From NCBI GenBank assembly GCA_963833225.1, contig CAWHXD010000002.1, forward strand, positions 1 to 14,203: a DNA stretch of 14,203 bases, in the 5' to 3' direction. This stretch comes from an uncultured Chloroflexia bacterium (lineage in GTDB: Bacteria; Chloroflexota; Limnocylindria; Limnocylindrales; CSP1-4). How positions within the stretch are numbered: position 1 is the stretch's first letter; every line of letters starts with the position of its first letter. The translations under genes were made by a program, and so were the position numbers. The notes beneath the pieces were generated by a model, which did no database searches, had not been told where the DNA came from, and saw nothing but the letters and a program-made list of their open reading frames with translations. This document shows, piece after piece, positions 1,147-12,292 of the stretch.

Positions 1147-1901
1147 ATGCAGGTCATAGCCACCAATGCGATCAGGCGCGCGGACCGACTGGCAATCGCG
1201 CGGGCCGCGCTGTCCGCCGTTCTCCTGCTGCTCGTCGGCCTCCTCGTCGGCTGGCTGTGCCTGGGCACGCCGCTGATCAGCGCCGTCCAGCCCCAGGGCC
1301 GGCCGACCGCGGCTCAGACGACGGTGGGCATCGTCGCCTGGGCGTTCGCGATCGTCGTGCCCGCCGGGCTTCTGCTCATCGGCGTCGCGCGCGTGGCAGC
1401 CACGATCGATGCGGTCCTGTCACTCCGTCCCGGCACCGTCGCATCGCGCCTGGCCAAGTCGCTGGGTCCGGACCATCTGGCGGCCAGCAGTTTCGTGCTG
1501 CCGGGTGGTCGACGGATCCACGAGCTCGTGCTGGGGCCGTTCGGCATCGCGATCCTGGGTGAGGTTCCCCCCCGAGCATGAGCCGTCATGTCGGCAGCCG
1601 CTGGGAGATCCGCGACGGCCGAGGGCGCTGGATCCCGATCGAGGCACCGACCGACCGGGCCGCCCGCGACGCCGAGCGGGTCCGCGGCTGGCTGACCACC
1701 GACGACCGTGACTTCCTCGTCCGCGTATACGCGGCAATCGTCACCGACGACCGGCGCATCCAGCGCACCCCGACGTGCGCGGTCGTGGCTCCCGAGGAAC
1801 TCGCGGGCTGGATGGCCGCGCTGCCGACCCAGCGGGGGCTCACGCCCGCGCGCATGACGCGACTCGTCGAGCTCATCAGGTCGGTCGCCGCGGCGGGTTG
1901 A
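1147..1901 (+). CDS. Membrane protein with two N-terminal TM helices and a degenerate NERD-like domain; split by an apparent 1-nt deletion in a C7 run (1567-1573)
   Basis: ORFs 1147-1581 and 1578-1901 join into ~251 aa if one C is added. TM segments AALSAVLLLLVGLLVGWLCLG and VGIVAWAFAIVVPAGLLLIGV. IHELVLGPFGIAILGE...W...PTDRAARDAERVRGWL...VRVYAAIV follows the NERD pattern. ATG 1147 lies 6 nt after GATCAT. Confidence 0.65.
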
Positions 1902-1987
1902 GCGAACCACGCCGCCGTTGCCGGGCGAGCGCCGTGCAGGGTCGCGGGCGGCACGATCGACTGGTCGTCGCATCGGAGCACCGAACG

Positions 1988-2064
1988 TGGTAGGGGAGCC
2001 AGGACTCGAACCTGGAACCGGCGGGATATAAGCCCGCAGCTCTAACCGATTGAGCTACTCCCCC
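1988..2064 (-). tRNA. tRNA-Ile, anticodon UAU (77 nt, encoded CCA)
   Basis: Minus strand reads GGGGGAG TA GCTC AATCGGTTA GAGC T GCGGG CT-TAT-AT CCCGC CGGTT CCAGG TTCGAGT CCTGG CTCCCCT A CCA. All four stems pair (G1-U72), TTCGA T-loop, A73, anticodon TAT at 2030-2028. Confidence 0.96.
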
Positions 2065-3143: not shown

Positions 3144-4395
3144 CTACCGGATCGGGCTTCCGTCGGCGCCGAGGACCGCGAGCGAGCGCCGCGGTGGCAG
3201 CGTCTCCGGGGTGTGGCCGGCCAGCAGCTCGACGGCCTCCGTGAACCGATCGAGCTCGGCTTCCGTCAGCCACCAGCCGACCGAGATTCGGAGCGCATCC
3301 AGTGCGGGCAGATCGCGCAGGATCGCGAAGGCCCGGTGCTCCAGCTCGTCCACAGCGGCCCGGGCGGGCCAGCCGTCGATCCGGAATGTCACCAGGGTGG
3401 CCATCGACGTCCGCGGGGTCATCAGGGTCACGCCCCGGATCGCAGCCAGATGCTCGGCCGTGGAGGCCGCCAACCGCCCCGCACGCTCGAGCGCCCAGGG
3501 CAGCCCGACATACATGGACAGCCAGCCGCAGCTGCGAGCGAACCCGACCAGCGACGGACGGTGGAACCCCGTGGCCTCGAAACGCCGCGCGCCGTGGTGG
3601 AGCCTGGGTTCGGCGACATCGAACGTCTCGTAGGACAGGAACCCGGCCGTCGGTGGCGTGACCGACTCGGCCAGCTGTCGCCGGACCCACAGGGCGCCCA
3701 TGCCCTCCGGGCCCAGGAGCCACTTCTGGGCAGGGACGGCATAGGCATCCACCCCGAGCTCATCGAGCTGGACCGGCATCGCTCCCGCCGACTGCGCGCC
3801 GTCGATGACCGAGACGGCGTCAGCGGCACGGGCGAGGCTCACCCAGCCGGGCGACCGGAAGCACGGCCCCGGTGGTCCACAGGACATGGCTGACCATGAT
3901 CGCGCGGGCCGGCCGCTCGAGCGCCCGGGTGAAGGCCTCGATCGTCCGGTCGTCATCGCCGCCGTCGCCGACGTCGACCAACTCCAGCTCGACCCCGGAC
4001 CGGTCCCGCAGCGCGATCAGCGGCCCGATGCCGCCGGGGTGCTCGTGGTGCGTGGTCAGGATGCGATCGCCCGGGCGCCATGGCAGCGCGCCGACGGCGA
4101 TGTTGACGCCGTCGGTCGTGGAGTGGGTAAGGGCAACGTCGGCGGGGTCGGCAACGAGAATGGCCGCGACGGCCGCGCGGGCCTCGGCCATCCGCTGCTG
4201 CGTCTCGGGCCACAGGTCCGGATGGGCACGACCGACGGCGAGCTCACGCGCGGCCTGCTCGTCCATCGCGCGCTGGGTCTCGGCCGGCAGGGGGCCGGCC
4301 GTGCCCGCATTGAGGTAGATCCCGGCGCCCGTCGCGGGCAGGACCTCCCGGACGGCGGCGATCTTCGCCGACTCGGGCATGAACGGGGCGACCAC
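3144..4395 (-). CDS. PLP-dependent aminotransferase class V enzyme, L-cysteine/cystine C-S lyase (C-DES)-like; 1-nt frameshift at ~3836
   Basis: Motifs YLNAGTAGPLP, THSTTDG, EHPG, SHVLWTTGAVLP, DGAQSAG, AQKWLLGPEGMG (PLP Lys), RFEAT, LRIS. The two ORF halves join to ~416 aa by removing one G at 3836/3837 (GAG C CTC GCC). Start GTG 4395 or ATG 4380. Confidence 0.88.
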
Positions 4396-4400
4396 CTCCG

Positions 4401-4407
4401 TATGATA
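4401..4407. promoter_or_regulatory. Overlapping divergent -10 elements (TATGAT on +, TATCAT on -) between the lyase and rhodanese genes
   Basis: TATCAT (4407-4402) lies 6 nt before GTG 4395. TATGAT (4401-4406) faces the rhodanese gene. Confidence 0.55.
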
Positions 4408-4459
4408 TCGGCGTCGCATGCGCCTGCCCCCGACCTGGCGACTGGTCACCTTGCCACTC

Positions 4460-5317
4460 ATGTTGGAGGCCGATCTGGCTGGCTTCGCCCACCCCGAGCT
4501 CCTCGCCTCACCCGAGTGGCTGGGGGAGAACCTCGGTCGCCCGGATCTCCGCGTGCTCGACGTACGATGGCGTCCGGACGGGACATCGGCCACCGTGTAT
4601 GGCACCGGACACATCCCGGGAGCCGTTCACCTGGAGTGGCGCACGTCGGTCGTCGACGTGCCGGAGGAAGGCGAGACTCCGCTGCTGGCCGCGCCGGAGC
4701 ACATGGCGGCCGCCATGGCGCACGCCGGTGTGGGCGACGGCACCTCGGCGGTGCTGTACGACGACACGCTCTCATACCTCGCGGCTCGTGTGTGGTGGAG
4801 CCTCCGAGCCTACGGCCACGAGTCCGCCCGGATCCTGGAAGGCGGCTTCCCCGGCTGGGTCGACGCCGGCCAGCCGGTGGCCAGCGGCATGGTTGAGGCG
4901 CCCGCGGCCGTGTTCACGCCGCGCGCCGTCGTCCGGCAGCGGCTCACGACGACCGACGTCCGGGGCCTGCTGGGAGCGCCCGACGTGCTCCTGGTCGATG
5001 CGCGAGGACCCGCCGAGTATCACGGGTTCGAGGGCAACGTGCGGCGCCTCGGTCACATCCCCGGTGCAGTCAACGTTCCCGTTGCCTCGATGCACGTCCC
5101 GGGGACGCAGCGCCTTCGCGATGCCGCTGAGCTTCGCTCGCTGCTGCTCAAGGCGAACATCACCCGCGGCCGGCGCCTCGTGTGCTACGACGGGTCCGGC
5201 GTCGCGGCGGCCAAGCTGGCGTTCGTGCTCACGTTGCTCGGCCACGACGATGTGGCGGTCTACGACGGCGGCTGGGCCGAATGGGGGGATCGGCTCGACC
5301 TGCCGGTGGACCGCTGA
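4460..5317 (+). CDS. Two-domain rhodanese/sulfurtransferase family protein (SseA/TST-like) with Asp at the catalytic Cys position
   Basis: LDVRW, GHIPGAV (twice), VLYDD, AARVWW, ILEGG, VDARGPAEY.G, C-terminal signature VYDGGWAEW. Active loop reads VCYDGSGVAA. 285 aa from ATG 4460. Confidence 0.9.
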   Translation: MLEADLAGFAHPELLASPEWLGENLGRPDLRVLDVRWRPDGTSATVYGTGHIPGAVHLEWRTSVVDVPEEGETPLLAAPEHMAAAMAHAGVGDGTSAVLYDDTLSYLAARVWWSLRAYGHESARILEGGFPGWVDAGQPVASGMVEAPAAVFTPRAVVRQRLTTTDVRGLLGAPDVLLVDARGPAEYHGFEGNVRRLGHIPGAVNVPVASMHVPGTQRLRDAAELRSLLLKANITRGRRLVCYDGSGVAAAKLAFVLTLLGHDDVAVYDGGWAEWGDRLDLPVDR

Positions 5318-10322: not shown

Positions 10323-10361
10323 CCGCCCGTCGCCGATGACCGCGATGGAGCCGCGTGCCGG

Positions 10362-11603
10362 ATGACAGCCACCGAGGCGGGTGGACACGCCGCGACCGTC
10401 GAGTTCGACCACGTGACCAAGGTCTACGGTGCCCAGGCCCCGAAACGGGGCACCCCCGGAGCGGTCAACGACCTCTCGCTGACCGTGGCGGCCGGCAGGA
10501 TCTGCGTCCTGGTCGGCCCGTCGGGATGCGGCAAGACGACCTCGCTCAAGATGGTCAACCGGCTGATCGAGCCCACGTCAGGGCGGATCCTGCTCGACGG
10601 CGTGGACGCCGCCACCCGGGACGTCACCGACCTCCGGCGGGGCATCGGGTACGTCATTCAGCAGACCGGCCTGTTCCCGCACCAGACGATCGGCGACAAC
10701 GTGGCCACGGTGCCGCGGCTGCTCGGCTGGCCGAAGCAGCGGCAACGGGAGCGGTCGGAGGAGCTGCTGGCCCTCATCGGCCTCGAGCCCACGACCTATG
10801 CGGGGCGCTACCCGGCCCAGCTCTCGGGTGGCGAGCGCCAGCGGGTGGGCGTCGCCCGGGCGCTCGCCGCGGACCCGCCCATCATGCTCATGGACGAGCC
10901 GTTTGGCGCGGTGGACCCGATCGTGCGCGAGCACCTCCAGAACGAGTTCCTGCGGATCCAGGAGCAGCTGGCGCGAACGATCCTGTTCGTGACCCACGAC
11001 ATCGACGAGGCGATCAAGATGGGCGACGTCGTCGCCGTGTTCCGCGGCGGCGGGGTGGTCGAGCAGTTCGGGCCGCCGGCCGAGATCCTGGCCGCGCCGG
11101 CGTCCGAGTTCGTGGCCCGCTTCGTGGGCGCCGACCGCGGCCTCAAGCGGCTGTCCCTGATGCGCGTCAACGACCTGTCGCTGGAACCTGCGGTGACCGC
11201 GCACGTGGGAGACGACGGGGCCGAGGCCAGGCGCCGCGTCCGCGCGGACCCGTTCCAGTACCTGCTCCTGCTCGACGCGTCCCATCGTCCGATCGGCTGG
11301 ATAGACCAGAACCACGTCCCCGCGTCAGGCCCGCTGCATGCCGACCTCGTGGACTCCACGTCTCCGCTGCTCGACCGCCGCACCACGCTCAAGGACGCGC
11401 TGTCGATGCTGCTGGACGACCTCGTCCAGGCCGGCGTGGTCGTCGATCACCAGGGCGCGTACCGCGGCCTGGTGACGATCGAGGCGGTGATGGCGCGGAT
11501 GCGCGACACGGCCGTGGAGCCCGAGTTCCCCGCCACTGCGCCCGAGGTGGACGACCAGGCGGTTGCCGCCACCTCGGCAACCTCCACCGCGTCGCGGCCA
11601 TGA
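10362..11603 (+). CDS. Osmoprotectant (QAT family) ABC transporter ATP-binding subunit with C-terminal CBS pair, OpuCA/OsmV/ProV-like
   Basis: Walker A GPSGCGKT, LKMVNRLIEPTSG, IGYVIQQ.GLFPH, signature LSGGERQR, Walker B LMDEPF, FVTHD, EFVARFVG. CBS-like tail TTLKDALSMLL...VVD.QGAYRGLVT. Confidence 0.95.
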   Translation: MTATEAGGHAATVEFDHVTKVYGAQAPKRGTPGAVNDLSLTVAAGRICVLVGPSGCGKTTSLKMVNRLIEPTSGRILLDGVDAATRDVTDLRRGIGYVIQQTGLFPHQTIGDNVATVPRLLGWPKQRQRERSEELLALIGLEPTTYAGRYPAQLSGGERQRVGVARALAADPPIMLMDEPFGAVDPIVREHLQNEFLRIQEQLARTILFVTHDIDEAIKMGDVVAVFRGGGVVEQFGPPAEILAAPASEFVARFVGADRGLKRLSLMRVNDLSLEPAVTAHVGDDGAEARRRVRADPFQYLLLLDASHRPIGWIDQNHVPASGPLHADLVDSTSPLLDRRTTLKDALSMLLDDLVQAGVVVDHQGAYRGLVTIEAVMARMRDTAVEPEFPATAPEVDDQAVAATSATSTASRP

Positions 11604-12292
11604 TCGACTGGGGGTGGATGGGCGATCACGTCGACGAGCTCGCCTCGCGGCTCGTCCAGCACCTCTACCTGGCGCTCATCGCCCTGACGGTCGGGTTCGT
11701 CATCTCGTTCGGGCTCGCGATCCTGGCGGTCCGCCGGCGGCGCCTCTACCCGCCCGTCACGGCCGTGGCCGGGATCCTGTACACCATCCCGAGCCTTGCC
11801 ATGTTCGCCGCGCTGGTCCCGATCACGGGCCTGTCACTGCTGACCGCGGAGGTCCCGCTGATCCTGTACACGCTGCTGATCTTCGTGCGCAACATCGTGG
11901 CCGGGTTCGACGCCGTGCCGGCCGAGGTGATCGAGGCCGCGGACGGCATGGGCTACCCGCGCGGGCTCCGGATGTGGCGCGTCGAGCTGCCGCTGGCCGT
12001 GCCCCTGATCGTCGCCGGCGTCCGCGTGGCGAGCGTGTCCACGATCGGCCTGGTGACCGTGTCGGGCGCCATCGGCGATCGTTTCGGCGGCCTGGGGTTC
12101 TTCATCTTCGAGGGCTATCGGCGCGGGTTCCCAACCGAGATCCTGTTCGGGGCCGTGCCGGCGATGGTGCTCGCGGTCGTGGTTGACCTGGTGCTGGTGG
12201 CCGTCCAGCGTCGCGCCACACCCTGGTCCCAGCCGGTTGGCGCGGCAGTCCAGGGCGACTCCGTCACCTCGCGTGCGGTGGCCAGCGTGTGA
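11600..12292 (+). CDS. Osmoprotectant ABC transporter permease (230 aa)
   Basis: ATGA overlap with the ATPase stop. LYTIPSLA, EAA motif VIEAADGMG, VELPLAVPLI, GGLG. Confidence 0.93.
   Translation: MIDWGWMGDHVDELASRLVQHLYLALIALTVGFVISFGLAILAVRRRRLYPPVTAVAGILYTIPSLAMFAALVPITGLSLLTAEVPLILYTLLIFVRNIVAGFDAVPAEVIEAADGMGYPRGLRMWRVELPLAVPLIVAGVRVASVSTIGLVTVSGAIGDRFGGLGFFIFEGYRRGFPTEILFGAVPAMVLAVVVDLVLVAVQRRATPWSQPVGAAVQGDSVTSRAVASV

Follow-up and report, generated by a model that had tools for sequence, protein, structure and literature searches.

How a bacterium can keep the isoleucine codon AUA apart from the methionine codon AUG without lysidine is the question raised by one tRNA gene in a 14,203-nucleotide stretch of DNA (the window) from an uncultured Chloroflexia bacterium. 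Almost all bacteria read AUA with a tRNA-Ile2(CAU) that is lysidinylated by TilS. This enzyme is regarded as essential and close to universal among bacteria and has been considered as a drug target. The window encodes a tRNA-Ile with the genomic anticodon UAU, from which a sequence-only reading had proposed that AUA decoding in this lineage may be independent of TilS. Our analyses of the genome, the class, and the phylum support this proposal; they place the locus in a known kind of system and do not imply a new mechanism.

The gene lies on the minus strand at positions 1988–2064 (77 nt including the CCA at 1988–1990). It is the single tRNA found by ARAGORN in the window, called as tRNA-Ile with anticodon tat, and the Rfam tRNA family RF00005 matches the same interval over its full length with 69.6 bits (gathering score 29, E 9e-14). 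The acceptor stem (GGGGGAG/CUCCCCU) ends in a G1-U72 pair next to the discriminator A73, the anticodon stem is built from five GC-rich pairs (GCGGG/CCCGC), and the loop C32 U33 U34 A35 U36 A37 U38 runs from 2032 down to 2026. The anticodon itself occupies 2028–2030 (U34 at 2030, A35 at 2029, U36 at 2028), followed by A37 (2027) and U38 (2026), by which 36-UAU-38 replaces the usual 36-UAA-38. The intact cloverleaf, the loop CUUAUAU, G1-U72, and A73 had all been read correctly from the letters, in every detail. A sequencing error or miscall at position 34, already considered less likely in that reading, is out: contigs assembled independently from the salt-marsh metagenome runs X3, X4, and X8 cover the gene with no listed difference at 2026–2032 and carry T, not C, at position 34, and UAU recurs in 21 of 24 congeners.

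Conservation of the fold was assessed in 20 homologues (19 distinct) from 13 genera. Cloverleaf pairing holds in 99.2% of cells compared to 82.0% in column shuffles, none of 500 shuffles being as high, and control structures slid by 1–3 columns reach 42–58%. Double-sided compensatory changes occur in 10 of the 21 pairs, including all five anticodon-stem pairs, which supports a working cloverleaf. Further, the six loop bases CUUAUA, anticodon included, are invariant in 20 of 20 aligned homologues. The tRNA-Ile(UAU) gene is confirmed as real, structurally intact, and conserved. The metatranscriptome run X24 yields one 165-nt contig at 1784–1948, downstream of the tRNA, and none over the tRNA itself; this speaks neither for nor against expression, as RNA libraries may contain DNA and tRNA levels cannot be read from contigs.

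All genomes examined are metagenome bins. The bin of the window (G000; 3.89 Mb in 20 contigs, 71% GC) is 86% complete and 3% contaminated. ARAGORN identifies 54 tRNAs in it, among them two identical copies of tRNA-Ile(UAU), one tRNA-Ile(GAU), and two tRNAs with a CAU anticodon, one of which is initiator-like (C1-A72 mismatch, GGG/CCC anticodon stem) and the other an elongator. A third CAU tRNA, that is tRNA-Ile2(CAU), was not found in the bin by ARAGORN. Likewise, TilS gave no match in the bin with either PF01171 or TIGR02432, the same profile searches being positive in 14 of 14 control genomes. Within the genus, PF01171 has no match in any of the 24 congeners; 21 of them encode a full-length tRNA-Ile(UAU) with 96–100% identity, one more has a copy truncated where its contig stops, and the two in which the tRNA was not found are 82% and 69% complete. 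As a side observation on the tRNA set, the bin contains a tRNA-SeC with anticodon tca (G000:C7:216319-216417), and the organism probably uses selenocysteine. Four ARAGORN calls of 91–99 nt look false-positive, namely Gly gcc (C5), Pro ggg (C6), and Arg tcg and Val gac (both on C19).

The distribution of TilS was followed in a class sample of 150 genomes, each at least 80% complete, from the window's family (f1), its sister family in the same order (f2), and three other families of the class (f3, f4, and f5). TilS scores above the cut-off in 0 of 44 f1 genomes and 0 of 6 f2 genomes, one- and two-contig assemblies included, compared to 94 of 100 genomes of f3, f4, and f5 in the same search (89 of 95 without the five unpublished genomes G102, G131, G134, G156, and G166). 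The pattern of the UAU tRNA matches in 44 of 44 f1, 5 of 6 f2, and 0 of 100 f3–f5 genomes, and the reversed-pattern control gives 0 matches. In a phylum sample of 400 genomes, TIGR02432 finds TilS in 0 of 23 f1, 0 of 4 f2, and 359 of 373 other genomes, while the UAU pattern occurs in 23 of 23, 4 of 4, and 16 of 373, respectively. The relatives thus bear out the sequence-only reading: throughout the order the UAU tRNA gene is conserved, and precisely the genomes that carry it lack TilS. The exchange of TilS for the UAU tRNA is order-wide (f1 and f2), not class-wide.

The CAU tRNAs were compared in the same lineages. Well-assembled f1 genomes contain the initiator and one elongator CAU tRNA only (5/5); two further CAU-pattern matches in these genomes are not tRNAs. 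In 5 of 5 TilS-positive relatives there is a third CAU tRNA, the acceptor of which starts with GGGCCC (C4-G69, C5-G68), and this type is found in 5/5 TilS-positive versus 0/5 TilS-less genomes. We take C4-G69 and C5-G68 to be the determinants recognized by E. coli TilS and, since the GGGCCC-type tRNA is also lost together with TilS, call it tRNA-Ile2(CAU). The only elongator CAU tRNA left in the TilS-less genomes must serve as tRNA-Met. Neither part of the canonical lysidine system, the C34 tRNA gene and TilS, is found in the window's lineage, where each genome keeps a single conserved tRNA-Ile(UAU) in syntenic position.

Two families outside the window's class present a related picture. TilS is absent from 3 of 3 f27 genomes (G212, G262, G286) and 4 of 4 f56 genomes (G362, G467, G474, G509), and a UAU-pattern tRNA with A38 occurs in 2 of 3 and 3 of 4 of them, the latter including the unpublished G474. 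This suggests independent lysidine losses within Chloroflexota. In the TilS-positive sister families of the window's class, we further observed that the genes found within a few hundred bases of tilS are those for elongator and/or initiator tRNA-Met and not the one for its substrate tRNA-Ile2 (G054:C4:504565-505397, G043:C1:768200-769000, G125:C1:1527451-1528115, G055:C4:23084-24512).

Taken together, tRNA-Ile(UAU) is in all likelihood the only AUA decoder of the organism and of the whole order, and works without lysidine. In the mechanism that we propose, a type-2 isoleucyl-tRNA synthetase (IleRS), already present class-wide, would charge the UAU tRNA with isoleucine, and U34, most likely not xm5-modified, would pair with the A of AUA. 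AUG would be spared by the inherently poor reading of G by an unmodified U34, together with competition by tRNA-Met. Such discrimination has precedents, as in Bacillus subtilis and Mycoplasma mobile an unmodified U34 strongly prefers AUA over AUG (PMC3919564, PMC3575796). TilS would probably have been lost a single time, in an ancestor of high GC content that hardly used AUA.

The IleRS of the bin carries DUF5915, the C-terminal domain of type-2 (eukaryote-like) enzymes (E 1e-29), and resembles MupA and MupB. DUF5915 is present in IleRS ORFs of 1128–1169 residues in 5 of 5 genomes from f1, f2, f3, and f4, and the zinc-finger family of type-1 IleRS matches other ORFs only, none at the IleRS locus. 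As type 2 is also found in TilS-positive f3 and f4, it is older than the TilS loss and has the appearance of a pre-adaptation. The bin's only IleRS gene (G000:C8:~241,000-244,250, L035) is frameshifted near residue 897, with DUF5915 continuing in the +1 frame. The frameshift probably reflects an assembly indel rather than a pseudogene, since the window, too, lacks a base after 1566 that is present in short-read contigs.

The second element of the proposed mechanism concerns the anticodon loop. None of the 52 pattern matches in f1 and f2 has A at position 38, where U, C, or in one case G is found, whereas A38 is present in 12 of 12 other U36 tRNAs of the bin and in 5 of 5 tRNA-Ile2(CAU) of the sister families. 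The work on the bacterial TsaBD structure (2026) describes 36-UAA-38 as a strict and universal determinant of t6A37 that is fully conserved in ~3630 bacterial substrate tRNAs, the requirement for A38 being based on conservation, structure, and U32/U36 mutants (PMC13276492). That U38 breaks the context for t6A, as the sequence-only reading had noted, agrees with this rule. TsaD is present in the searched genomes (5/5). The tRNA-Ile(UAU) does not carry the 36-UAA-38 motif, and without A38 its A37 should be free of t6A. A t6A-free A37 would weaken binding such that only the fully matched AUA is accepted, and the de-tuned loop, its position 38 being U, C, or G, may thereby act as a further safeguard of AUG. 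Such a loop may sharpen the A-over-G choice. Kohrer et al review evidence that loop context alters what U34 reads (PMC3919564).

In its strongest form, this idea states that an ANN-decoding elongator escaped t6A37 by giving up A38, and that the de-tuned loop, not a wobble modification, lets a plain U34 take A but not G. We put it forward tentatively, as a possible though doubtful account. If true, lysidine-free bacteria would have resorted repeatedly to replacing A38 as a means of fidelity, a recurrence to which non-A bases in 52 of 52 matches from the order and in 44 of 88 global matches listed would point. The global numbers stem from a pattern scan of an arbitrary sample of bacterial and archaeal genomes (at least 120 stretches, loci L111-L230), which returned at least 88 ARAGORN-confirmed tRNA(UAU) genes from CPR groups, Collinsella, Planctomycetota, Chloroflexota, and others. 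Among the 88 matches listed, position 38 is A in 44, C in 40, U in 3, and G in 1, with the non-A38 matches mostly from CPR lineages, and deviation from 36-UAA-38 may characterize UAU isoleucine tRNAs in general. Non-A38 is not needed for life without TilS, however, since the TilS-less f27 and f56 have A38. Five genomes from the global scan were searched for TilS, which is absent from two CPR genomes and one Chloroflexota genome with the same tRNA type and present in a Collinsella and a Gemmataceae genome.

Discrimination of A over G might instead be conferred by a modification of U34, for example pseudouridine, which eukaryotic tRNA-Ile(UAU) carries, or a new one, and not by the loop, with AUA still being read without TilS. 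The reported charging of a psi-A-psi tRNA by a eukaryotic IleRS of the same type (PMC3575796) would fit such a modification, as would the modified U of a haloarchaeal U34 mutant and the report that nearly all bacterial U34 are modified (PMC3919564). We nevertheless consider this rather unlikely. MnmG (GidA) was found in 0 of 5 genomes of the class (G000, G006, G077, G025, G054), no candidate enzyme for such a modification was identified, and in both chemically analysed bacterial cases U34 is reported as unmodified. MnmA is present in 5 of 5 genomes. It is the absence of MnmG that makes a U34 without the xm5 group most likely, and the wobble uridines of the Lys, Glu, and Gln tRNAs would by the same token carry s2U without an xm5 group.

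AUA is rarely used in the bin. Its conservative ORF set contains 106 AUA in ~782,000 codons (0.14 per 1000), 45 of which fall within the first tenth of their ORF and probably precede the true start. Of the two AUA codons that had been pointed out in the window, the one at 11301–11303 (plus strand) stands: it is codon 314 of the ABC ATPase ORF at 10362–11603, the only AUA of the window that is in frame within an ORF with Pfam support, and the residue aligned with it in the homologue on contig C19 (a paralogous or orthologous copy) is Ile. The other, at 1156–1158, is an ATA in no supported ORF. The meaning of the codon was examined by comparing ORFs from fetched loci with their orthologues and scoring the majority aligned residue at AUA sites after a frame filter. 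The 27 sites in f1 align to Ile (11), Val (5), Leu (3), Met (2), and several other residues, and the 36 sites in f2 (63% GC) to Ile (28), Val (7), Leu (1), and Met (0). Ile or Val is hence found at 16/27 and 35/36 sites, respectively. AUC sites resemble AUA sites, and AUG sites align to Met in 55–58%. AUA codons are thus used in f1 and f2 and, judged from these alignments, appear to stand for isoleucine.

These data also bear on whether the tRNA discriminates at all. It could read both AUA and AUG, with Ile-for-Met errors being tolerated, AUA nearly unused, and tRNA-Met outcompeting it at AUG. The low frequency of AUA in the bin is compatible with this scenario, and competition by tRNA-Met has been discussed as a partial safeguard (PMC3575796). 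We consider it decidedly unlikely, as AUA makes up about a tenth of aligned Ile codon sites in f2 (36/344), where it aligns with Ile and Val, so that the tRNA cannot be at trace level. Moreover, an unusual loop kept so strictly throughout the order suggests that decoding properties are under selection.

It is barely credible that TilS and tRNA-Ile2(CAU) are present but were missed, being unassembled or too divergent, and that the UAU tRNA is a redundant second reader of AUA, as in Lactobacillus casei. Incompleteness of the window's own bin would allow for this, both genes coexist in the Collinsella and Gemmataceae genomes mentioned above, and ten TilS-positive Chloroflexota genomes have a UAU-pattern match, three of which are ARAGORN-confirmed tRNAs. 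The complementarity of TilS and UAU tRNA across the class sample speaks against it, as do the concordant result with TIGR02432 and the parallel absence and presence of the third CAU tRNA in TilS-less and TilS-positive genomes. The only weak PP-loop match checked, a sub-threshold one in f2 (locus L001), is the GMP synthase GuaA.

The second, identical copy of tRNA-Ile(UAU) in the bin (G000:C19:81154-81230) calls for an explanation. The window contig (C2) is collinear over its full length with C19:70.5-81.9 kb, at merely 65–78% nucleotide identity, and the sole break in collinearity is one inserted luciferase-like gene. The closest congener locus is that of G010 for the window (84%) and that of G008 for C19 (78%). 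In the runs compared, contigs break at the tRNA, where word depth rises three- to four-fold, which is what several co-occurring relatives with an identical tRNA would give. Most likely, the window contig represents a co-binned congener of the same genus; an old segmental duplication within one genome is the less likely origin of the C2/C19 pair, and under both readings the window comes from the same genus. As the window possibly derives from a co-binned congener, the absence of TilS is argued at the level of the clade, which is the stronger case anyway, and not from one closed genome.

Least credible of all, and rejected, is that a phage or integrative element carries the tRNA as cargo, or that the tRNA marks a duplicated attachment site, and that it stands outside the core decoding set: tRNA genes are common integration sites, the bin has two identical copies, and the window is a short 14-kb contig, but no integrase or phage family was matched among the 45 window ORFs scanned with Pfam, the neighbours are ordinary (aminotransferase, rhodanese, DNA ligase, GNAT, OpuA-type ABC transporter), the collinear C2 and C19 loci both correspond, on either flank, to the locus that congeners have in single copy, and 48 of the 50 positive genomes in the class sample have one copy of the UAU tRNA, with two in G000 and G059.

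Just downstream of the tRNA, a conserved ORF without a Pfam family (1314–1973, minus strand) shares 70% nucleotide identity with the gene adjoining the C19 copy. An additional C follows 1566 in the contigs of three runs, such that the window has a 1-bp deletion, and the missing base probably breaks the frame of this ORF in the assembly. The class-V aminotransferase (two overlapping ORFs, 3144–4614) and the ABC ATPase/permease ORFs (10355–12292) look frameshifted as well, and the assembly seems to have indel errors.

A TilS-less tRNA-Ile(UAU) had been described by 2013 for nine species in three clades (PMC3575796). Later counts give 17 genomes of three genera (2021) or speak of "rare cases" (2026), and papers from 2021 to 2026 treat the tRNA as a rare exception of Mycoplasma, Bifidobacterium, and Neorickettsia. 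Our literature search found no paper linking tRNA-Ile(UAU) or lysidine loss to Chloroflexota and none on tRNA-Ile(UAU) of CPR. The order shares with Bifidobacterium and Neorickettsia the lack of tilS and tRNA-Ile2(CAU) and the genomic UAU anticodon (PMC3575796, PMC8450103) as well as a type-2 IleRS with a non-zinc C-terminal domain (Taniguchi et al, 2013, PMC3575796); in the latter source, the tRNA chemistry of these genera is likewise given as unpublished. In contrast to them, the system here belongs to Chloroflexota, extends over an order and not a few genera, and is found in free-living bacteria of soil, freshwater, and salt marsh, whose genomes measure 1 to 4.6 Mb. A is never found at position 38 in the order; the comparison with the two genera covers features other than their loops.

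Mycoplasma mobile also reads AUA with tRNA-Ile2(UAU) without lysidine, the ribosome and the tRNA context being thought to prevent AUG reading (PMC3575796). Its IleRS is of type 1, adapted by Arg865 in its zinc-binding domain (PMC3575796), whereas the type-2 enzyme here is without such a domain. Further, the M. mobile tRNA is reported to carry t6A37, while the tRNA here is without the A38 needed for t6A, and M. mobile is a low-GC parasite with a reduced genome, unlike the members of this order. The same principle, an unmodified U34 that binds AUA strongly and AUG weakly, underlies the B. subtilis tilS-deletion suppressor tRNA-Ile1 G34U (Kohrer et al, 2014, PMC3919564), which demonstrates that it works in an ordinary bacterium. 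The suppressor is a laboratory mutant derived from tRNA-Ile1(GAU) (PMC3919564), whereas the UAU tRNA here is natural. CPR/Patescibacteria combine a UAU tRNA with the lack of a bona fide TilS in 2 of 2 genomes checked, and C38 is common in CPR tRNA-Ile(UAU) among the matches listed; they are an unrelated phylum with ultra-small genomes, in which AUA is heavily used.

The kind of system is therefore known, and what is new is the phylum, the order-wide spread in free-living bacteria, and a position 38 that is never A. A whole order of abundant free-living bacteria, with genomes of 1.0 to 4.6 Mb and 63 to 72% GC, has made the switch. The sister orders of the class keep TilS, which offers a clean natural comparison for asking whether IleRS, ribosome, or tRNA loop changed, and the non-A38 loop is a concrete exception for testing the strict 36-UAA-38 rule of t6A. 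As the pattern seems to recur in two more Chloroflexota families and in CPR, the textbook statement on TilS probably needs softening.

The descent of tRNA-Ile(UAU) was traced by identity and by trees. In five f1 genera, the UAU tRNAs are 78–83% identical to the GGCGGAG-type elongator tRNA-Met, as opposed to 59–70% to tRNA-Ile2(CAU), and G1-U72 is common to the UAU tRNA and this tRNA-Met type. The UAU type of the window itself is equally far from both (71–72%), and it is ~64–69% identical to the tRNA-Ile(GAU) and tRNA-Met of the bin. In AU tests on 71 columns, p is 0.072 for UAU with Ile2(CAU), 0.021 for UAU with elongator Met, 0.25 for UAU alone, and 0.167 for UAU with Ile(GAU). With trees of only 71–74 columns giving no resolution, it is pairwise identity that points to tRNA-Met; as a lead, tRNA-Ile(UAU) may stem from a duplicated elongator tRNA-Met via C34U, not from tRNA-Ile2(CAU). 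Elongator tRNA-Met itself occurs in two types within f1 and even within the window's genus, a GGCGGAG type in G000, G024, and G109 and a GGCAGGG/GGCTGGG type in G006, G170, and G077 (L079, L081, and L083 compared to L082, L084, and G000:C17:112150-112224).
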